Of a stretch of DNA of 64,000 nucleotides, positions 19,008 through 29,551 are shown in pieces. The DNA is from a phage. The stretch is taken from sequence record PZ452610.1; one strand, given 5' to 3'. The notes beneath the pieces were generated by a model. It was not told the DNA's origin and made no database searches. It saw nothing but the letters and a program-made list of their open reading frames with translations. The position numbers and the translations under genes are program-made. The first letter of the stretch is position 1; each line of letters starts with the position of its first letter.

Positions 19008-20151
19008 GGTCGTTTTCTATATCTGCTGCAGACGGAGCATCAGAAGTTTTAACCGGAACTTTAGTTGTTGCTTTGCAATTAATAAGGTCGTTAACAGCGT
19101 CATCAACTTCTTTAATAGAAGAGATAGCACCTAGTTTATATTTAGTTTCAATTGCATCTCGGAAAGGTTTGTGTTTAAACAAAGGTCCCCAGAATTCTAC
19201 ACAATCGGTAGCTTTAGCACGCCATGATTTCTCTTCACGAATCATTTCGCCTGTTTCTTCGTCAAGGAATTCGCGAGCATACCACCCGGCTTTAGGCTTA
19301 ACAACAAATCCAATTTCAGTTGCCATTTCTAACAAGCCACTGAATGGGTCAATACCGCCATCAAAATTAACCGTGATCGGGAAAGTAGATTTCTCTTTAA
19401 CTGTACGAGATTTTTCCGCTTTCAACGTAAAGTCATAACCGGTCAATTCTGTACCTTCTTTAACCTGACGTTTAGAGATAAAAAATACCGTGTTGGCAGA
19501 ATAAAGAATACCTGTACCACCGCCCATAATCTCTTTAGGATACAATCCGCCGATTTCCATTGCTGTATGGTTGATTGCAACACATGGAATATCTTTAATA
19601 GTCAGATAAGGAGTCACAATGCGGAACAGAGATTTAAGTGCCTTAGCACGAGACATATCACCTACAACTTTCTCGTTCAATGCATCTTCGGTTTCTTTCT
19701 TAGATGCAGTATTACCAATCGAGTCAATAAAGATAATAACTTTATCACCGCGTTCAATAGCGTCAAGCTGATTAGTCATATCAACTTTAAGTTGTTCGAC
19801 AGATTGAATCGGAGTATGAACTACACGGTCTAAATCAACACCCATTGAACGAAAATAAGATTCCGAAGCACCGAATTCTGAGTCATAAAACAAACAGATT
19901 GCATCTTTATATTTCTTCATATACGCTGCAACCATAGTTAGTCCAAACAACGTTTTAAAGTGTTTAGAAGGAGCAGCAAAAATAGTTAAGCCTGATTGCA
20001 ACCCGGCATTCAGTGCACCACCTAATGCAATATTCAACATCGGAATACGAGTAGGGACTTCATCGCGATTATTAAACAGCTTAGACTTAGTCAAGTCTGC
20101 AGTCATTTTAGAAGTAGAAGCTTTAATCAGACGAGATTTTAAATCAGACAT
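18979..20151 (-). CDS. uvsX: UvsX recombinase (RecA-like)
   Basis: 390 aa; RecA-fold ATPase (Walker A in FAAPSKHFKT region); acidic C-terminal tail; T4 position. Confidence 0.95.
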   Translation of the reverse strand: MSDLKSRLIKASTSKMTADLTKSKLFNNRDEVPTRIPMLNIALGGALNAGLQSGLTIFAAPSKHFKTLFGLTMVAAYMKKYKDAICLFYDSEFGASESYFRSMGVDLDRVVHTPIQSVEQLKVDMTNQLDAIERGDKVIIFIDSIGNTASKKETEDALNEKVVGDMSRAKALKSLFRIVTPYLTIKDIPCVAINHTAMEIGGLYPKEIMGGGTGILYSANTVFFISKRQVKEGTELTGYDFTLKAEKSRTVKEKSTFPITVNFDGGIDPFSGLLEMATEIGFVVKPKAGWYAREFLDEETGEMIREEKSWRAKATDCVEFWGPLFKHKPFRDAIETKYKLGAISSIKEVDDAVNDLINCKATTKVPVKTSDAPSAADIENDLDEMEDFDE

Positions 20152-20249
20152 TGTATTTTTCCATAGGCATCATTATATTTTACTCATGTTTAAAAGATAA
20201 GATGATTATATACTAAGGGTTATACAGCATTTAAAACTTTAAATGACTC

Positions 20250-20798
20250 TTAACGAGCCCATTTGATGATTTCTGTAATCAAATCATTACGTTCGCTTGC
20301 ATTAAATCCTATAACTTTGTTAGCACCATCATGATTAAGTAATTGATACGTTTGGATTTTGTTATGAATTGCAAACTCTTCAAAATGTGAAATGACTGTA
20401 TTAAAACCGAATGAAGACAAAGTGATAAGGTCGTCTTCAAAACTTTCAGTCATTTCGTTACGTGTTAAAATAATTGTGAACACATCATGGTTTTGGCAAA
20501 GACGAACATAATCCTGTTCATAAACGTCAAGAACCGAGTCCGCATCTTGTCGAATACGTCCATAAACCCAGTTACTAATATATCCACGGTCTAACAGATA
20601 AATCTTAGTAGGGTCTAAATAATTCAACATCGTTTCGAAACAGCCAACTTCATTTCGAGACTTAACATCGAAACGTCCATCAACTGTTCGTTTAGGGAAA
20701 TCAATCTTTACATATCTTTCACTAATTTCCATTATGTCATTAATGAAAGTTGTTTTACCAGCATTATCCGGGCCATCTACTAAAATAATTTTAGCCAT
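20250..20798 (-). CDS. P-loop nucleotide kinase, thymidylate-kinase-like
   Basis: 182 aa; Walker A GPDNAGKTT and downstream LDRGYISNWVYG resembling the TMK DRY...S motif. Confidence 0.55.
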   Translation of the reverse strand: MAKIILVDGPDNAGKTTFINDIMEISERYVKIDFPKRTVDGRFDVKSRNEVGCFETMLNYLDPTKIYLLDRGYISNWVYGRIRQDADSVLDVYEQDYVRLCQNHDVFTIILTRNEMTESFEDDLITLSSFGFNTVISHFEEFAIHNKIQTYQLLNHDGANKVIGFNASERNDLITEIIKWAR

Positions 20799-20799
20799 T

Positions 20800-21699
20800 T
20801 TATTCCTCGATTACGACATCTTCATATTTAGGTATATTATACGGTGAAGAAATTAAAGCATTAAAGTAGATGAACTCACCAAGACCTGGATGAAATACTT
20901 CTTCAGGATTTTCGAAATATTGAATCTTCGGACGTCCTTTAAGAATTTGATAGTACTCAGTTTTAGTTGGTTTAAAAATTCGAATCAACGCTTCTTCAGG
21001 ATACTTATTTCTGTCGAAGCTATTATTTGGATCGGTTATATAAAGCGGTTGACCTAATTGAATTGCGCATTCAACAACTTGTTCAAAACGATAGCATGGG
21101 TCACTAATTCGAAATGGATGAAAAATACCATCTAGATGAATAGGAGCCAAATCACCTACAAGACGCTGCATGATGGAAGGACGTATAACTTTCTGCGTTA
21201 CGATAATCTTATTACCATCTGCACCTGCGTTAACCAGCACTTCTTTTTGACGTTCATTCAACACAGTAGTTTGAAGTGAACGATTAACCGACAACATATC
21301 AGTTTTTAAGAATTCGTCAATATAAAAACGTGGTTTATTAGGGTCTGCAGTGATATTGAAATTGAATTCCACATCAAAAGCGCCGTCATATCCAGTGATA
21401 TCTGTGATTAAAAAATCACAATCATAATAAGCAATTAATGAATCAACAACAAATTCATTTTCAGACCAGAAATATTTACGAGTGTTATACGCGTTATCTT
21501 TATACCATAATGGAACAAACTTAAATTCTGGAAAAAGACGTTCGCATTCTTTAATATCAGATGCATTACGTGGATATGTAATCACATCACCCGGATTAGC
21601 ACGGTGCAAATGAAGTTGGAAGTTGCCATCCTTAAGGATAGCATACTGTCCAGTTTCATAAGACCGCATACTCAAGATTGGTACGCGGAAAATAGCCAT
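20800..21699 (-). CDS. Hypothetical protein, 299 aa, at the T4 beta-gt position
   Basis: ORF between uvsX and 42 where T4 encodes beta-glucosyltransferase; no similarity to beta-gt recognised. Confidence 0.55.
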   Translation of the reverse strand: MAIFRVPILSMRSYETGQYAILKDGNFQLHLHRANPGDVITYPRNASDIKECERLFPEFKFVPLWYKDNAYNTRKYFWSENEFVVDSLIAYYDCDFLITDITGYDGAFDVEFNFNITADPNKPRFYIDEFLKTDMLSVNRSLQTTVLNERQKEVLVNAGADGNKIIVTQKVIRPSIMQRLVGDLAPIHLDGIFHPFRISDPCYRFEQVVECAIQLGQPLYITDPNNSFDRNKYPEEALIRIFKPTKTEYYQILKGRPKIQYFENPEEVFHPGLGEFIYFNALISSPYNIPKYEDVVIEE

Positions 21700-22415
21700 T
21701 AGTCAAGGAATCCTTTAACATAATCAAAATCACGTTCAAACACATGGGCACTTACCATGGTATGAGTATAATCACCAACTTCTACCCCACATTCGTTAGC
21801 GATATAATGAAGTAATTTTCCTTGGAGATAAAAATCCAACTGCATAACAACAGCACAGTTCTGAGAACGCATATGACAGTGGGTATAAAGCTTACCATCA
21901 CGAATATAATAAGTCACTGAGTCAGTACATGGATATTCAAGCGTTTCGTCCGAATCAAGCAAAGCCTGATCAGAACTTTCTAGAATTTGGAACACAACTC
22001 TTCGAGAGTTAGGCTTCTCTTTAAGTTCTTTTAGAAGAGCTGGTAATTGGGCCGCAATGCGAGGACCATAGAAAGTGTTGAAGTTCGCCGGCAAAACATC
22101 TGATTTTGGTTTAGAAATAAATTTAGCGACATTAGGATATGCCTTAAACGCTTCTTCTGCGTTGGTACCACCAGAAATCATAAACTTCCAGAAGTCTTCG
22201 GCATATTCATAAGAGATGCGGTTAATACGTGGGTCGGTCATTTTGAATGATGATGGAGTGTCAACAACTACTGTCATAGACCCAATTTCATTACAACGTC
22301 CAATACGAGAATCAGTTACGAATTCCGGGTTTTCTAAAATTTCACGATTGACTGCTTTAAATGCGGTTTGAAAATCTGCGGCTTTGATATATTTCATTGT
22401 GTTATGTTTTCCCAT
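21699..22415 (-). CDS. 42: dCMP hydroxymethylase gp42 (thymidylate synthase family)
   Basis: 238 aa; TS-family motifs SRRVVF, active-site PC (EYPCTDS), MRSQN; T4 position. Confidence 0.8.
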   Translation of the reverse strand: MGKHNTMKYIKAADFQTAFKAVNREILENPEFVTDSRIGRCNEIGSMTVVVDTPSSFKMTDPRINRISYEYAEDFWKFMISGGTNAEEAFKAYPNVAKFISKPKSDVLPANFNTFYGPRIAAQLPALLKELKEKPNSRRVVFQILESSDQALLDSDETLEYPCTDSVTYYIRDGKLYTHCHMRSQNCAVVMQLDFYLQGKLLHYIANECGVEVGDYTHTMVSAHVFERDFDYVKGFLD

Positions 22416-22457
22416 GTTTACCTCAATACAATTTATTATATACTCAATTCGTAAAGC

Positions 22458-22697
22458 TTATTTGAATTTCTTGACAATGTTGATATAACGTAAAGCTTCA
22501 GCATCGATACTTCCAAGAACACTATGAAGAAATGCATCAGCGTAGTATTCCAATTGAACAGGTTCTTTAATCACTTTAGCCGCTTTAGTTTCAAACAGGC
22601 CCATCAGGGCCTTTTTAAGAATTTGTTCGTTGCTGTTAATTTTCATAGTCAAAATCTCTTCATTAAGTTGGTGGTTAAAAGTTTTTCTAGAAATCAT
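22458..22697 (-). CDS. Hypothetical protein, 79 aa
   Basis: ORF in operon context. Confidence 0.45.
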   Translation of the reverse strand: MISRKTFNHQLNEEILTMKINSNEQILKKALMGLFETKAAKVIKEPVQLEYYADAFLHSVLGSIDAEALRYINIVKKFK

Positions 22698-23869
22698 TCC
22701 GGGTACCTCAAAGCGTCATCAGAGTTAGTTATATCAATAATAGATATAGAGTTTTCTGCTAACCCGTTTTTAGATAATTGACGTTTATAATATCTTTCAC
22801 AATATGTACACGTCGTCCCGCAGATTTCATTAGCACAATCGAAATCTGGATGTCTGAACCACCTTTTTTCTAAAAAGCCATCTAACAAAGAGGTTTCAAT
22901 ATTTACTGTATGTGAAAACTCAGTTTCGTTTTCAAGAGTGAAAATAGTCTCTAAAGGCTTCCACAGTTCTAACAAATTACCTTCAAACTTTTCAGAAGCG
23001 TATGCTTCAAGAACTTTCAAAATGTAGTCTGTGCTACCTGTACGTCCTGAAACTTTGAATTGAGTGATACCAATATCATTATAAAGTTTCAAATCTTGAG
23101 GACGAACAAAACGAGTTCTCAACCAGTTAAATGGGTCTGTATCACGAGCTTTAATACAGTGCTGCATAGGATATCCGTTTAAGGATTTAGCATCATCAGC
23201 TGTAACATCAGTACTATGGAAAATATAGCAAGAGTCACGATAGCTACAATGTGTTGTATACCCTTTACCAGCATTAGAACAGAACTCATTTACAAGAACT
23301 TCAAATATTATATTGTTCTTATTGCAAAACTCTGCTGCACGCTTCAGGAAAGAAACTGAACGGTTCTTATGAATTCCACAGCAGACCTTTTTGATATTAT
23401 ACTGGTCATGCAAGTATTTGATTTGAGTTACAGCATCGACATGTAGAATTGTTGAAACTTCAATCTCAATGTCTTTATTGACTTCACGAACAATTTCCAT
23501 AACAACAGGGTTAGCGATAGTAATACGCCATACGCCTATTGACCAAAGATACTGAACATAATCCTGAATAGCTTTCTTCTTCCACCCAACTAGTTCTCTT
23601 TTTGAACCAGGATTTATCGTGTTGAGTGTATAGTTAAAGCAAATACCTAATTCGTTACAACGTTTAACGTAATCTTCTAACATCTTTTTGTCAACGTCAG
23701 GAAGCCTAAAATCAGGTCTGGCTGCTACAAAAGCCATTTCTCTTGTAGAGCCGTATACTTCGTTTATCAAGCTATTAGGATAAGTTTTATTGAGCTCTAC
23801 GATTTTATCAAGAAGAGCTAAATCAAAATTCGTTCCAATTTTAAAAGTATTCATTTTTTTGCATCTCAC
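22694..23869 (-). CDS. Hypothetical protein, 391 aa, with C-terminal Cys cluster
   Basis: C-terminal CANEICGTTCTYC (C-x4-C-x3-C-x2-C); family not recognised; sits inside the sugar-nucleotide cassette. Confidence 0.6.
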   Translation of the reverse strand: MRCKKMNTFKIGTNFDLALLDKIVELNKTYPNSLINEVYGSTREMAFVAARPDFRLPDVDKKMLEDYVKRCNELGICFNYTLNTINPGSKRELVGWKKKAIQDYVQYLWSIGVWRITIANPVVMEIVREVNKDIEIEVSTILHVDAVTQIKYLHDQYNIKKVCCGIHKNRSVSFLKRAAEFCNKNNIIFEVLVNEFCSNAGKGYTTHCSYRDSCYIFHSTDVTADDAKSLNGYPMQHCIKARDTDPFNWLRTRFVRPQDLKLYNDIGITQFKVSGRTGSTDYILKVLEAYASEKFEGNLLELWKPLETIFTLENETEFSHTVNIETSLLDGFLEKRWFRHPDFDCANEICGTTCTYCERYYKRQLSKNGLAENSISIIDITNSDDALRYPE

Positions 23870-23910
23870 GTTAATTGATGCGATGGTTTTTGCAGGTCTT
23901 ACTTAAATTA

Positions 23911-24312
23911 TTATAGATTCGGTTTATATGATTTAAATGTTTCGAATTCGCCTTTATTCATAAGAGCTTTGAATTCGTCAGGACGCATAGCTTTGTCGTC
24001 GATAATCCAATCATATACTGGTTTATGTGTTAGCAAATTATGGTACTTCAAACCAATGTTTTCCAAGTTCTGAATCAGACTTGGGAGAATGTCAATTGCT
24101 ATACGACCAGGACCTACTGACTTCATACCGCGAGCAGTGTAAAGCGTTATGGTATGCCCTGCATCATACAGGGCATTAATAGCAGTCACCATTTCGACGT
24201 CTGGTTTGAAGTTCACGTAATCACGATTGTTATTCCACTCTGTTATACAATCATCGACATCAAAACAAAGATTAAGCATGTTTTCTACACGGTGCATTAG
24301 ATTCGTTCCCAT
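23911..24312 (-). CDS. HAD-superfamily phosphatase-like protein, 133 aa
   Basis: N-terminal FDVDDCIT (HAD motif I-like), TLYTARG (motif II), KPVYDWIIDD (motifs III/IV). Confidence 0.6.
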   Translation of the reverse strand: MGTNLMHRVENMLNLCFDVDDCITEWNNNRDYVNFKPDVEMVTAINALYDAGHTITLYTARGMKSVGPGRIAIDILPSLIQNLENIGLKYHNLLTHKPVYDWIIDDKAMRPDEFKALMNKGEFETFKSYKPNL

Positions 24313-25982
24313 TGATGAGTGATATCGCCACCGATTGGACGATAAGAAACACCAGTTTCTTTATCAGTTAGTACCCATTTACCAGGATTTTTTGTAATCA
24401 GAGTAGCCGTTACAGGTTCTGCTACGTCATAACTAATAGAGCCGTCCTGAAGTACACGGCCCATGTTACGTAATTGCTTAGTCAGAAGTTCCATACCTTT
24501 ATAATATGCGGCTACCGCTTTAAGTGGATTATTCTTGAAATAACCACCTAATGCAATCCAGATAATTGCTACAGCCAAATGATGATACTCGTTAAACGAA
24601 CTCATCTTTCCATATTTGTAAACTAATGGATTGATGTTAATAGTCACATTACAAGTTGTTTCGTCAATAGTAAACTGTCCCCAGGTCGGATTAGCGTTGA
24701 ATTCATCATAACCTGAAACAGCATAAAGCACTTTAGCTTCATCATACAATTTTGGCCCGTAAATCTTGGTTTCGCCAAAATATCCACGAGGGTCGATAAA
24801 CTTGACTTCGCCGTTATCAGTAATCATAGTATTACTGAAGTTCGGGTCACCGTGAATAACAGAGTACTGTCCCTGAGAACGGGTATGATAACGAATAAGA
24901 TGTTCTAAAGCTTGCTTCAGCATTGGCTTCAGACGTCCAATCTTAGTGTAGTTCACGTGTGTGATTTTACCAAATGAATCAATCAATGGCTGAATGCTTT
25001 CACAACGATCAATAACTTTCGTATAGAACTCTTTAGTGAAATCACGGCGAACAGTTTCAGGACTTACAAAATAAGTGTCTGTGCTGAATTTCAGTGCATC
25101 TAAAATTGCATCAACAATTTGTGGACGAGCAAGACTTGATTTGGATTTAATATATTCAAATGCTGGCTTACCTTTAATACGTTCCATTTCAAAATTATTT
25201 TCATTTACCGAAACTAACTGAGGAACTGAATCTGATTTCACTTTCAAATACCATGAAATCTCATCTTTTTGAAGAGCTCGACCTTGTTCGGTTAACGCGA
25301 ATTTAGTTACAGTTTCTTCGCCAATTTCAACTGCATTAAAACTACGATTAAGTTCACGAACTTCATGAGCTTTTTCAAGTTTAGGCATATCACCTAAATC
25401 AATTAGATTCATAAGCTCTGATTTATTGAATGCACTGCCGTAAAGGAATTCTACGAAATCACGTCCTTTGCAGTATTCATGAATTTCCTCATCAGTAGAA
25501 CCCATGTAGAATTCCCAGTCTTTGAACTGATAAATTCCTACAACATTACCGCCTGTTGAACCTACGTTAGTGATATTTTCACCATCGAAATTATATCGAC
25601 ATTCATCACCCTTAACATAGATTGCGTTAACATTCCAAGACCATGAACCAAAATCAGGAATAATATCACACCAGTTAACAATTACGTTATGGCCATCTAA
25701 ATCTTTGTATAATTTAGCAAGAGCATAAGCAGAACCATACGCTTCATCAACTGTACGAATAGTCACATTGAACCCTTCTTGCTCGCAATAAGCTCGAACA
25801 GTTTCAGCAAATTTTGAATGAACTACTACAATAATTTCATCTGCGCCAAGGTCAGAATAAATTGTATACAAATTGCTCAGAATAGTGTCTTGTTTATAGT
25901 TAACAAGAACTTTTGGAATATGATGCGTTATTGGATACAAACGAGTTGCCAGTCCAGCACCAAGAATAACAGCTTTTTTCAT
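24297..25982 (-). CDS. Bifunctional sugar-1-phosphate nucleotidyltransferase / APH-type sugar kinase
   Basis: 561 aa; N-terminus KAVILGAGLATRLYPITHHIPKVLV (NTP-transferase G-x-G-x-R-L); C-terminus HGDPNFSNTMITDNGEVKFIDPRGYFG (APH/ChoK catalytic loop). Confidence 0.75.
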   Translation of the reverse strand: MKKAVILGAGLATRLYPITHHIPKVLVNYKQDTILSNLYTIYSDLGADEIIVVVHSKFAETVRAYCEQEGFNVTIRTVDEAYGSAYALAKLYKDLDGHNVIVNWCDIIPDFGSWSWNVNAIYVKGDECRYNFDGENITNVGSTGGNVVGIYQFKDWEFYMGSTDEEIHEYCKGRDFVEFLYGSAFNKSELMNLIDLGDMPKLEKAHEVRELNRSFNAVEIGEETVTKFALTEQGRALQKDEISWYLKVKSDSVPQLVSVNENNFEMERIKGKPAFEYIKSKSSLARPQIVDAILDALKFSTDTYFVSPETVRRDFTKEFYTKVIDRCESIQPLIDSFGKITHVNYTKIGRLKPMLKQALEHLIRYHTRSQGQYSVIHGDPNFSNTMITDNGEVKFIDPRGYFGETKIYGPKLYDEAKVLYAVSGYDEFNANPTWGQFTIDETTCNVTININPLVYKYGKMSSFNEYHHLAVAIIWIALGGYFKNNPLKAVAAYYKGMELLTKQLRNMGRVLQDGSISYDVAEPVTATLITKNPGKWVLTDKETGVSYRPIGGDITHQWERI

Positions 25983-26023
25983 GTTGTGGTCCTCATTGGT
26001 AAGTAGGTGTATTGTACACTATT

Positions 26024-26167
26024 CTAGTTAAAGCATTCATACTTTGCTTGTAGTCCAATCATAATCCATCCAATTACAAGTGTTGGAATCATTACTGGAG
26101 CCGTTAAGCTCCAGTAGATAGTCATGACAAGCATCAATAGTAAAAGTCCTATTGTTATTGCTTTCAT
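26024..26167 (-). CDS. Possible small membrane peptide, 47 aa (not in ORF track)
   Basis: ATG overlaps the TGA of the SIS gene (ATGA coupling); MKAITIGLLLLMLVMTIYW... hydrophobic. Confidence 0.3.
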   Translation of the reverse strand: MKAITIGLLLLMLVMTIYWSLTAPVMIPTLVIGWIMIGLQAKYECFN

Positions 26168-26799
26168 TGTTCGCCTCGTAACATGGCACCTAGTGCACCG
26201 CCTGGATGGAACTTAAGAAAGTCATTAGAGGTAAATCCACGTTCAGACGAAAGGTTGATAGCAAACGTATCGATAAGCGCTAACAACAATGTAGTGGACA
26301 TAGTCGGAGCCAGAGAATTCTCATCAACCTCTACCGCGATGCCTGTACAGAAAGAGTAATCAAAAAGGGCTTCATTTTCTTGCGGAATGTCTGGGTTACA
26401 ATGCAACAGAATCTGTTTGACATTTGGACGAATCATTTTAAGATGCTTAGCCACGCCTATCATTTCTTCAGTCTTACCAGAACGACTAATATGAATCAAC
26501 ACATCATTAGGCGCAATGAATCCTGCATCACCGTGAGAATAATGCCCAGTGTTCAAGTACATACTCGGGATACCGAGTGAAGCAAATGTCTCAGAAGCTT
26601 TAGTTGCAATATTAGCATTCTTACCAACACCTGTAATAATTACTCGGCTTTCATAATTACTAAGTCCAGGGCGTCGAAGAGTTTCTAGAATAGCATTATA
26701 ACGAGCAGGGTTTTGACTAATTACTTTGGCCATAGCGGCCAAAGAAGAAGCTTGTTTTATGATTGCGTCAATAGCGATAGTAATAGGAGTAGTTTTCAT
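26164..26799 (-). CDS. Arabinose-5-phosphate isomerase-like SIS-domain protein (KdsD/GutQ type, no CBS domains)
   Basis: 211 aa; VIITGVGKNANIATKASETFASLGIPS...HGD...HISRSGKT and C-terminal HPGGALG parallel the E. coli KdsD SIS domain. Confidence 0.8.
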   Translation of the reverse strand: MKTTPITIAIDAIIKQASSLAAMAKVISQNPARYNAILETLRRPGLSNYESRVIITGVGKNANIATKASETFASLGIPSMYLNTGHYSHGDAGFIAPNDVLIHISRSGKTEEMIGVAKHLKMIRPNVKQILLHCNPDIPQENEALFDYSFCTGIAVEVDENSLAPTMSTTLLLALIDTFAINLSSERGFTSNDFLKFHPGGALGAMLRGEQ

Positions 26800-26839
26800 A
26801 TTTCTCTCATTTAATTAGTTTACCGTCCATGACATTATA

Positions 26840-29551
26840 TCAAAAATCGAACATATCGAACAGAGATGCTTTCTTCTCGTAATCGAGTTTCGCTGCTGAT
26901 GTGAATCCTTCAAGTGGTTTAATAAATGTCTTCTCAAGGAGAACAGTGTAGTCCATCCAATGAAGTACGTCATCTTTAATTAAATCTGTGATTTCAGTAC
27001 CAGAAGGCCATGCGATACATTTATCACCGAACGGGTTTCCTTCACGTAAAGGCAGAACATATACTTTTTCACCTTCTACAACTTGTGGAGCATCAATATT
27101 ACCTTTGATAGCTCTGTTATATGTCAGAATTCCACGAATATGGAACGGACATTTAGGACCAGGGAATCCACCTACATCATATTTAGCAATGTTATTCGCA
27201 GAAGATACCGACGCGATGCTAATATAATTCAATTGACGGAATTCTTTTTCAAACTCTTTAAAATATTCTTGTAATGATTCTTCACCTTCTTGAAGCATAC
27301 GACGAATACATTCTTTAAGAGCTTTCTGTACTGCTTTAGGGGTCGAAGATTTCTGAGTCTCTAGACCCATGATTTTGAGTTTAGGCTCAGCGTAACGAGT
27401 ACCTTCCATATCCCACACGTTTAATGCGTAACGTTTCTTACCAGTCCAGAATCCACCAATACCTTTAGAACCGAGCGGAGGACCAGCGATAGCTTCTCGG
27501 TCCATGAACATTAAGTGTTGTTTATTGTTCATGTATTCACACATTTCACGGAAACCTCTATCAATAGCAGGTTCCATACGTTCACGAGCGAACTTATCTA
27601 AGAAGTCTACCCAATGGTTGGTATCACGGAATTTAGATTCACCAACCTTATCGATAATTTTATCAGCAGATACGTAAATAGAGTCTGTATCACCATAAAG
27701 AACGAAAGCTTCACCTTCTGTACCACAAACTTCGTTCAGATATTCATTAACTTTACGTTCAATCCACTGTAAAGCCATTTGACCAAATGTTGTGATTGCA
27801 GTAGCATTACGCAAATCGTAATAACGGAACCAAACGTTGCCAAGTGCACCATAAAGTGAGTTGATAAGCAATTTACGGTTAATTTGTGCAGTCATACCTG
27901 CAACTTCAGTACGTTGAGCTCTAAACAACATTTCATTAAGAGATTTAGCAGACAACTTTTTAATCTTTTCTTTAATCTCGTCAGTGAAGTCGAAACGATA
28001 ATCAACATCTAATGGTTCGTCAACAGAAAGATTAGGATTATGCAACGCCTCTTTAATTATTTCACCATTACGTTGAGCCGCAAGCATATAACCTTTATGT
28101 TCTTTACGTTGATTAAAGACCTTAGTGATTTCAGTTGGAACTACACCATCACGGTCTTTATAATACATCATGCCATTAGGAGAACAACTGTACACATCTG
28201 AAGGACGTTCAGCGATTGCGTTAATATAATCATGCAGTGGAGCTACTTTAAACGTTCCTGCTATTGTTTCCGGGCTAATATTCACTTGGCGAATAATACT
28301 TGGATACAGAGATGTAAGGTCGAAACTCATTACATATTTGTATCGATTTGGAATAGGTTCCTTAACAAAAGCGCCAGGATAAGGTTGAACCGGGTGAGAA
28401 CGACCTTGTGGAATCACCTTGTTCTGCTCTTTAAGGCTATTAAAAATAATAGCATCCCATGTTTTAATTGGGCTAAACACAGATTGAATCTGTATCTTAG
28501 CATAATAACCCATGTCCAAACTCAAGTTGATGAACTGACGCTTAGCATCAATTTGCAATACACGATACACGTCGATAATGTTATAAGAAATATATCGTTG
28601 GTGATTGCTTTCACGAAGCTTAGAAATAGGGCCGTCATATTTCAGTTTACCAACGTTCAATTCAAATTCTGAAATGTAATCTAGAGAATACGACGGTTGA
28701 TTGGTAAAAGAGAATTTTTTGTAAAGGTCGATATAATCAAGAACAGAGATACCGAACAATGTAATGATTTCACGAGAACCATACATGTTTTCGATAACTT
28801 TAACACGAGTTTTACGATGCGGTGATAAACGTTTCGCAGTAGATTCGCCAAAAATATTCTTGATTCGGTTATACACATATGGAATATCAAATGACTCAAC
28901 GTTCCATCCAGTCAAAATGACAGGAGTTTTCTGTTGCCAGAAGTTGAGATATTCCATCAACAATTCTTTTTCGTTATCGAACGGCATATAAATGATTTTA
29001 TCGATAATTTCAGATGGAACTTCATCACCGCCTTGTTCTTGAAGCTTAGCAGCGATTTCAATAGACCATTCTTCTACATTACCATATGGAGAATTCAATA
29101 GATCAAATACGTAGAACCTGTCGTCAATTGAGTCATAATGGGTGATAGCATCAATCGGATGTTTTGCTTGTGATGGCTCAGGGAACCCATCCGGAGATGT
29201 TACTTCGATGTCGAAGTTAGCCACACGAATTTTTGTATGGTCGTATTTGATTTCATAGTTATAAGTGTCAGACAAATACGCCAATTTGAAATCGTCCATG
29301 CCAAGTGCTTCAAGTCCGATATCTTCCATGCGTTTAATCCATTGGGAGGCATCACGCATATTAGCGAACAACTTACGAGTACACGGCTTACCGTAGATAT
29401 CGAAATATTTCGTAGCCTGACTTTCCGGACAATGAGCAAACAGTGATGGTTTATATTCTACTTCACGAGTACGTTCACGGCCATTAGAATCGATGTAACG
29501 TTCAAAAATTGAATCACCAATCTGTTCAACCGTTAAGTAAAATTCTTTCAT
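26840..29551 (-). CDS. 43: DNA polymerase gp43 (family B); matches RB69 gp43 from memory
   Basis: 903 aa; N-terminus MKEFYLTVEQIGDSIFERYIDSNGRERTREVEYKPSLFAHCP..., exo motif FDIEV, pol motifs DTDS and KKRY. Confidence 0.98.
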   Translation of the reverse strand: MKEFYLTVEQIGDSIFERYIDSNGRERTREVEYKPSLFAHCPESQATKYFDIYGKPCTRKLFANMRDASQWIKRMEDIGLEALGMDDFKLAYLSDTYNYEIKYDHTKIRVANFDIEVTSPDGFPEPSQAKHPIDAITHYDSIDDRFYVFDLLNSPYGNVEEWSIEIAAKLQEQGGDEVPSEIIDKIIYMPFDNEKELLMEYLNFWQQKTPVILTGWNVESFDIPYVYNRIKNIFGESTAKRLSPHRKTRVKVIENMYGSREIITLFGISVLDYIDLYKKFSFTNQPSYSLDYISEFELNVGKLKYDGPISKLRESNHQRYISYNIIDVYRVLQIDAKRQFINLSLDMGYYAKIQIQSVFSPIKTWDAIIFNSLKEQNKVIPQGRSHPVQPYPGAFVKEPIPNRYKYVMSFDLTSLYPSIIRQVNISPETIAGTFKVAPLHDYINAIAERPSDVYSCSPNGMMYYKDRDGVVPTEITKVFNQRKEHKGYMLAAQRNGEIIKEALHNPNLSVDEPLDVDYRFDFTDEIKEKIKKLSAKSLNEMLFRAQRTEVAGMTAQINRKLLINSLYGALGNVWFRYYDLRNATAITTFGQMALQWIERKVNEYLNEVCGTEGEAFVLYGDTDSIYVSADKIIDKVGESKFRDTNHWVDFLDKFARERMEPAIDRGFREMCEYMNNKQHLMFMDREAIAGPPLGSKGIGGFWTGKKRYALNVWDMEGTRYAEPKLKIMGLETQKSSTPKAVQKALKECIRRMLQEGEESLQEYFKEFEKEFRQLNYISIASVSSANNIAKYDVGGFPGPKCPFHIRGILTYNRAIKGNIDAPQVVEGEKVYVLPLREGNPFGDKCIAWPSGTEITDLIKDDVLHWMDYTVLLEKTFIKPLEGFTSAAKLDYEKKASLFDMFDF

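Follow-up and report, generated by a model that had tools for sequence, protein, structure and literature searches.

A minimal HAD protein of an RB69-like phage is very probably the D-arabinose 1,5-bisphosphate phosphatase AfhF

A short gene on the minus strand of a 64,000-nucleotide stretch of phage DNA (sequence record PZ452610.1; the whole stretch is referred to here as the window) raises the question of which sugar phosphate a very small HAD-type phosphatase would hydrolyze, and at which step of sugar activation. A first-pass annotation, made from the sequence, had proposed that the protein dephosphorylates arabinose-5-phosphate (A5P) ahead of a kinase acting at C1. With high confidence, we instead identify the gene as the orthologue of AfhF (RB69 gp51), a Mg2+-dependent D-arabinofuranose-1,5-bisphosphate 5-phosphatase. 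A PDB sequence search was decisive, returning 9iqw_A at E=1e-86, an entry released on 2025-07-16 and titled [quoted passage not shown]. AfhF of Escherichia phage HY126 (He et al., Nat Chem Biol 2026) is identical to the HAD protein at 126 of 128 residues and shares its length, its start, its place directly downstream of AfhE and the order of the surrounding cluster; the two substitutions, T38S and E79A (128-aa numbering), fall at no invariant position. The genomic context agrees with this identity, as the gene adjoins AfhE in a cluster with a dCMP 5-hydroxylase and an arabinosyltransferase, in the order found in HY126 and RB69. RB69 gp51 (RB69ORF051c, NP_861741) is 97.7% identical over 128 aa and has, together with gp81 of Acinetobacter phage DLP3, been assigned as an AfhF analogue (Lee et al., NAR 2026, PMC13326640); its RefSeq label is "phosphoheptose isomerase". 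Identity, motifs, fold, synteny and co-occurrence were established here, and for the substrate and the order of steps we rely on the literature and the PDB title. Mg2+-dependent hydrolysis of the 5-phosphate, as given in that title and in the summary of He et al. contained in PMC13326640, is accordingly a sequence-based prediction for the present copy. AfhF is already known, structure and activity having been published in 2025-2026 for a 98%-identical protein, and the window adds one more near-identical copy. Its value is corrective: common database labels for this family are wrong, and so is the intuitive order of phosphatase followed by kinase.

Over bases 20000-27000, the window matches E. 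coli O157 typing phages 3, 6 and 13 at 100% identity and phage RB69 at 98.4%, and by sequence the phage is a member of the genus Mosigvirus (RB69-like), family Straboviridae. The open reading frame (ORF) of the HAD protein lies in a variable cluster between the genes for DNA polymerase gp43 and uvsX, in which all genes are on the minus strand, and spans at most 133 codons (24312 to 23911). Translation most likely begins at the second ATG (M6, MHRVENM...; motif and residue positions follow the 133-aa numbering, except for T38S and E79A), 15 nt inside the ORF, which gives a gene at 23911..24297 and a protein of 128 aa. The M6 codon shares bases with the stop codon of the 561-aa gene that precedes it (TAATG), has a weak GGGA 9 nt on its 5' side, coincides with the annotated start in RB69 (387 nt) and in HY126, and encodes the residue at which the native sequence of the crystallised construct 9iqw begins. 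The 133-aa start was rejected, being inside the upstream gene and without a Shine-Dalgarno sequence. A third in-frame ATG is found at 24279 (M12). Homologues outside Mosigvirus mostly start at the equivalent of M12 in an alignment of 30 sequences, and residues 1-11 therefore lie outside the conserved domain. The TAATG overlap implies translational coupling of AfhE and AfhF. In phage NRG-P0074 (5753-6514 of locus L002), a homing endonuclease gene sits exactly between AfhE and AfhF and replaces the TAATG junction together with the first AfhF residues; in phages a20 and Gravdalen, a homing endonuclease feature adjoins the same N-terminally shortened AfhF match. This insertion shows that the N-terminal extension of AfhF is dispensable.

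The first-pass annotation was right that the protein is a HAD-type phosphatase, a reading borne out by motifs, fold and the 98%-identical protein of known crystal structure (PDB 9iqw). The three motifs it had named are all present (FDVDDCIT at 17-24, TLYTARG at 56-62 and KPVYDWIIDD at 97-106), and its description of a very short scaffold is apt for what is a cap-less (C0) HAD, a size with precedent in the equally small 1xpj (126 aa) and 2obb (~121 aa). All four HAD motifs can be assigned: motif I as D18-V-D20-D-C22, motif II as T59, motif III as K97 and motif IV as D105-D106. The homologue consensus of motif I is DIDNT, and position 22 is C here and T elsewhere. Residues D18, D20, T59, R61, K97, D105 and D106 are invariant in the 30-sequence alignment, which extends down to 35% identity, and all seven are also kept in 12 more distant bacterial or metagenomic relatives and in 1xpj. 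We infer that D18 is the nucleophile and D20 the acid/base. An AF2 model (pLDDT 85) has the HAD fold, with its Rossmann-like alpha/beta core, and matches GmhB, the T4 Pnk phosphatase, HisB-N and KdsC. Homologues were found by tblastn in 384 phage records, and a search of 5.8 billion proteins returned 48 relatives. The ORF is confirmed as a real gene rather than a chance reading frame by these 384 records, the invariant catalytic residues and the crystal structure of the 98%-identical protein. Four further elements (R30, H96, the G67-I71 loop and K115) show invariance in the phage clade but not beyond it, and probably help form the site for the second phosphate. The G67-I71 loop is absent from most distant relatives, and R30 and H96 are missing from Vibrio cholerae APC26283 (PDB 1xpj) and from TIGR01689, both of uncharacterised function.

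The place of the gene in the pathway was considered against its neighbors, which are, from gp43 to uvsX:
29551-26840, minus strand: gp43 DNA polymerase
26164..26799, minus strand: SIS-domain D-arabinose-5-phosphate isomerase, RB69 gp55 homologue (Pfam SIS, E=1e-10)
between the isomerase and the AfhE orthologue, minus strand: a small ORF
24297..25982, minus strand: AfhE orthologue, 561 aa, a nucleotidyltransferase-kinase fusion
23911..24297 (maximal ORF to 24312), minus strand: AfhF orthologue, the HAD protein
22694..23869, minus strand: Peptidase-U32-family protein, RB69 gp50 homologue (Pfam PF01136, E=7.5e-11; PHROG 5757)
22697-22458, minus strand: a 79-aa ORF
21699..22415, minus strand: thymidylate-synthase homologue, RB69 gp48 homologue (Pfam Thymidylat_synt)
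20800..21699, minus strand: glycosyltransferase, 299 aa, RB69 gp46:47 homologue, annotated as a glycosyltransferase in NRG-P0074
20798-20250, minus strand: thymidylate-kinase-like protein
20151-18979, minus strand: uvsX

The HY126 genome (PP658200.1) carries the same cluster in the same order, with proteins 97-99% identical. The isomerase (209/211 residues identical to its HY126 counterpart) matches the NCBIfam models KpsF/GutQ at E=2e-32 and KdsD at E=7e-31, in both cases under the curated cut-offs. The AfhE orthologue, identical to the HY126 protein at 543 of 562 positions, combines an N-terminal sugar-1-phosphate nucleotidyltransferase domain of MurU/GlmU-like type (Pfam NTP_transferase at residues 3-99; NCBIfam MurU/GlmU-type matches) with a C-terminal domain of aminoglycoside/choline-kinase fold (weak Pfam fructosamine-kinase matches at 354-405), and AfhE is described, in the summary of He et al. 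within PMC13326640, as an A5P 1-kinase and UDP-arabinose pyrophosphorylase. Residues 228-265, which separate the nucleotidyltransferase part from the kinase part, hold 14 of the 19 differences from HY126 (13 substitutions and a one-residue indel), which by sequence looks like a small recombinant or hypervariable patch. The thymidylate-synthase homologue matches PDB 9iqc, 9ir2 and 9iqu at E around 1e-160 and its HY126 counterpart at 233 of 238 residues; RB69 gp48 has been confirmed experimentally as a flavin- and O2-dependent dCMP 5-hydroxylase, which makes the acceptor 5-hydroxycytosine (PMC13326640). The glycosyltransferase (297/299 identical to HY126) corresponds to the putative first DNA arabinosyltransferase, which uses UDP-arabinose (Lee et al., Table 1, PMC13326640). 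In the RB69 reference (NC_004928), the glycosyltransferase is split into ORF046/047 and the kinase/transferase into ORF052/053, both of which are intact here and in HY126. Thomas 2018 and Lee 2026 reported sequencing errors, with which the split ORFs agree.

RB69 DNA contains mono- and poly-arabinosylated 5-hydroxycytosine, not arabinosyl-hydroxymethylcytosine as was first thought (Lee et al., NAR 2026, PMC13326640). According to section 27 of that paper, which draws on He et al. (Nat Chem Biol 2026), the first reaction is phosphorylation of Araf5P by AfhE, giving Araf1,5P, and AfhF, a Mg2+-dependent phosphatase of which RB69 gp51 is the analogue, then converts Araf1,5P to Araf1P. Transferred to the window, the SIS isomerase would convert ribulose-5-phosphate to arabinose-5-phosphate, the C-terminal kinase domain of AfhE would yield arabinose-1,5-bisphosphate, the HAD protein would remove the 5-phosphate to leave arabinose-1-phosphate, and the N-terminal nucleotidyltransferase domain of AfhE would form UDP-arabinofuranose. 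Phage glycosyltransferases would then move arabinofuranose from UDP onto 5-hydroxycytosine in phage DNA, and the resulting arabinosyl-5-hydroxycytosine would guard that DNA against host nucleases. AfhF is one of three enzymes making the activated sugar, and the shielding of RB69-like phage DNA from restriction enzymes by arabinosylated 5-hydroxycytosine bears on phage therapy, phage engineering and DNA sequencing.

ADP-heptose synthesis proceeds through the isomerase GmhA, the kinase of HldE, the bisphosphate phosphatase GmhB and the adenylyltransferase of HldE. The arabinose route follows this logic. GmhB (PDB 2gmw, 3l8h, 4pnh) is likewise of HAD C0 fold, performs the same chemistry in taking the distal phosphate off a sugar bisphosphate phosphorylated at its anomeric and distal positions, and holds the same place in its pathway, after the anomeric kinase and before the nucleotidyltransferase. 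The HAD protein does not itself belong to GmhB when judged by sequence and by the Zn-binding insert. Genes are transcribed in the order isomerase, nucleotidyltransferase/kinase, phosphatase, and this order, together with the TAATG coupling, fits consecutive pathway steps. Counts of AfhE and AfhF are equal within each phage host genus (Escherichia 177/177, Acinetobacter 57/57, Klebsiella 25/25, Shigella 15/15). The broader outline of the first-pass annotation holds, in that sugar activation starts from arabinose-5-phosphate and the kinase-phosphatase pair shifts the phosphate from C5 to C1 with no need for a phosphopentomutase.

Other functions for the protein are suggested by database labels and profile matches. 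Its best PHROGs assignment is phrog_1238, "phosphoheptose isomerase" (E=5e-43), and AfhF homologues were met under the labels "phosphoheptose isomerase", "polynucleotide kinase" and "capsule biosynthesis protein"; AfhE is similarly found as "GlmU" or "dCMP deaminase", and the dCMP 5-hydroxylase as "thymidylate synthase" or "dCMP hydroxymethylase". A role as phosphoheptose isomerase or in capsule biosynthesis, as given by RefSeq, PHROGs and UniRef, would be favored by the PHROG label, by RefSeq product names repeating it and by a match to the NCBIfam model TIGR01689, EcbF-BcbF capsule biosynthesis phosphatase (E=2e-13). The SIS domain that defines GmhA is, however, absent from the protein in a Pfam scan, its fold and motifs are those of a HAD, the SIS protein of the cluster is the neighboring 211-aa gene, and the TIGR01689 match scores 50.4 bits, far under the cut-off of 162. 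The isomerase label is thus refuted by the domain and fold results, the reading as a whole is scarcely credible, and the three labels are misannotations, the "isomerase" one propagated. A comparison with HAD subfamily models, which the first-pass annotation had suggested, supports a relationship to TIGR01689 and 1xpj while leaving the protein, by sequence, outside the curated subfamily; no curated HAD threshold was passed, and TIGR01662 (HAD-SF-IIIA) reached 14.1 bits against a cut-off of 44.6. The general HAD models were missed because the sequence is too divergent, and membership is decided on motifs and fold. With Pfam silent, the protein was classified through NCBIfam, PHROGs and searches of PDB sequences and of folds. 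A nucleotidase or polynucleotide 3'-phosphatase acting on nucleotide pools or DNA ends (e.g., dCMP, dNMPs), outside sugar activation, is very improbable. The "polynucleotide kinase" annotation of some records speaks for it, as does a putative deoxyribonucleotidase as best AFDB match for RB69p051 in Lee et al., but nucleotidase and Pnk matches stay at the generic HAD level (11-15% identity), no better than sugar phosphatases, and neither similarity above that level nor a cap or kinase domain, as expected of a 5'(3')-deoxyribonucleotidase or the T4 Pnk 3'-phosphatase, was detected in the protein. In addition, the gene tightly adjoins and co-occurs with a sugar kinase/nucleotidyltransferase gene, distant bacterial relatives are fused to sugar cytidylyltransferases rather than nucleotide enzymes, and the near-identical protein is characterised, in the PDB title and the summary in PMC13326640, as a sugar bisphosphate phosphatase, not the nucleotidase unrelated to sugar metabolism that the first-pass annotation had named as the contrary outcome. 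Assignment of the substrate from fold similarity was rejected, GmhB scoring no better than nucleotidases or Pnk.

The order of steps separates AfhF from the scheme in which the HAD protein dephosphorylates arabinose-5-phosphate to free D-arabinose and a kinase then phosphorylates C1. Phosphorylation of free sugars at the anomeric carbon is known from kinases of AfhE-like fold, for example AmgK, the partner of MurU, and the best NCBIfam match of the AfhE N-terminal domain is MurU; cap-less HADs, moreover, are often promiscuous. Both the kinase precedent and this promiscuity count for the free-arabinose route, as does Table 1 of Lee et al., which still prints "dephosphorylates Araf5p to Ara" for RB69p051 and DLP3_081 (PMC13326640). 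Against it, the 9iqw title names D-arabinose 1,5-diphosphate as substrate, the text of Lee et al. as updated from He et al. has the kinase before the phosphatase, the genes run isomerase, kinase, phosphatase, and a bisphosphate intermediate has its precedent in the ADP-heptose pathway. We therefore regard the free-arabinose route as improbable. A5P as the substrate and free arabinose as an intermediate are both contradicted by the title and by the relevant text of PMC13326640, in which the kinase acts first and the phosphatase acts on the bisphosphate, and a position between isomerase and kinase steps does not match the gene order, in which the phosphatase follows both. The order given by the first-pass annotation is the earlier published guess retained in that table, a reasonable error. 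Several points nevertheless weigh against the identification as AfhF: the evidence for the substrate order consists of a PDB title and of the account of He et al. given in a second paper, the table of that second paper disagrees with its text, the Pfam scan assigned no family to the protein, HAD included, at E<=0.01, and T38S and E79A set this copy apart from the characterised HY126 AfhF, its own function being predicted from sequence. It is unlikely, though less so than the free-arabinose route by itself, that the enzyme is bispecific in vivo, acting also on A5P with a parallel free-arabinose route, or is bisphosphate-specific only as an oligomer or in complex with AfhE. Were such oligomer- or complex-dependent specificity true, R30, H96 and the G67-I71 loop would make up a site for the second phosphate that has not been described before in a minimal HAD. 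Thomas et al. 2018 make no mention of ORF051c or a phosphatase and go no further than speculating on "a kinase and esterase".

Homologues of AfhE and AfhF occur in about 370-384 phage records, against only 270 for the SIS isomerase. The kinase and phosphatase are present without the isomerase in Klebsiella phages and JS98-like (Dhakavirus) coliphages, which presumably draw arabinose-5-phosphate from host KdsD/GutQ. AfhF homologues of Acinetobacter phages reach only ~57-60% identity and come from clusters with no U32 gene. Synechococcus T4-like cyanophages (H75-H80) encode homologues, 31-39% identical and labelled "phosphoheptose isomerase", that adjoin nucleotidyltransferase, cupin, carbamoyltransferase or ADP-heptose synthase genes and may belong to a different phage sugar-activation pathway. 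Two metagenomic relatives (~39% identity; L003 5390-6282, L006 1329-2765) adjoin a SIS-domain gene, or a PfkB kinase and a cupin, arrangements that are heptose-pathway-like. Bacterial genomes were searched for a cassette of isomerase, kinase/nucleotidyltransferase and HAD, and the single strong match (L009) proved to be a T4-like phage contig inside a metagenome-assembled genome (MAG). Relatives in bacterial MAGs (29-38% identity; L010, L012-L014, L016, L017, L019) are mostly not free-standing. Six bacterial loci encode proteins of 344-417 aa in which a CTP_transf_3 cytidylyltransferase at the N-terminus is followed by the HAD as C-terminal domain; the fusion at L012 adjoins a NeuB-type synthase, and the HAD at L010 is fused to an NAD-dependent epimerase/dehydratase. 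CMP-nonulosonate synthetase fusions of the CTP_transf_3 type beside NeuB, whose HAD domains show 30-38% identity to the phage protein, also represent a nucleotide-sugar pathway, although as fusions they differ from the free-standing phage protein. This arrangement suggests that the bacterial fusion HADs may be nonulosonate-phosphate phosphatases, with nonulosonate-9-phosphate as the presumed substrate. Given the fusion of bacterial relatives to CTP_transf_3 beside NeuB, the wider HAD family seems to specialize in taking off a terminal phosphate in nucleotide-sugar pathways.

In the cluster, the U32 gene separates the phosphatase gene from that of the O2-dependent dCMP 5-hydroxylase, and the U32 product is outside the three-enzyme UDP-arabinose route. 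The protein shares 384 of 386 residues with HY126, and a PDB sequence search with it gave no match. The gene occurs in 222 phage records, with at least 81% conservation across genera, and is absent from the otherwise syntenic L009 cluster. Among U32 proteins, RlhA and TrhP have been linked to C5-hydroxylation of cytidine and uridine in RNA, a reaction that depends on prephenate and is independent of O2 (PMC6599085). By analogy, the phage U32 protein may be an anaerobic route to 5-hydroxycytosine. Against this idea, the Glu/Cys/Cys motif essential in RlhA and TrhP aligns uncleanly and pairwise BLAST is not significant, and a literature search returned no paper linking U32 to phage 5-hydroxycytosine. 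Named hosts of the U32 phages are Enterobacterales (Escherichia, Klebsiella, Shigella, Serratia, Proteus, Yersinia and others) and Shewanella; none of the 222 records is an Acinetobacter phage, and AfhE, AfhF and the isomerase are present in each of the 57 Acinetobacter-phage records. Enterobacterales and Shewanella hosts are facultative anaerobes, and Acinetobacter hosts are strict aerobes. The U32 gene is the most interesting loose end of the cluster, more so than the phosphatase.
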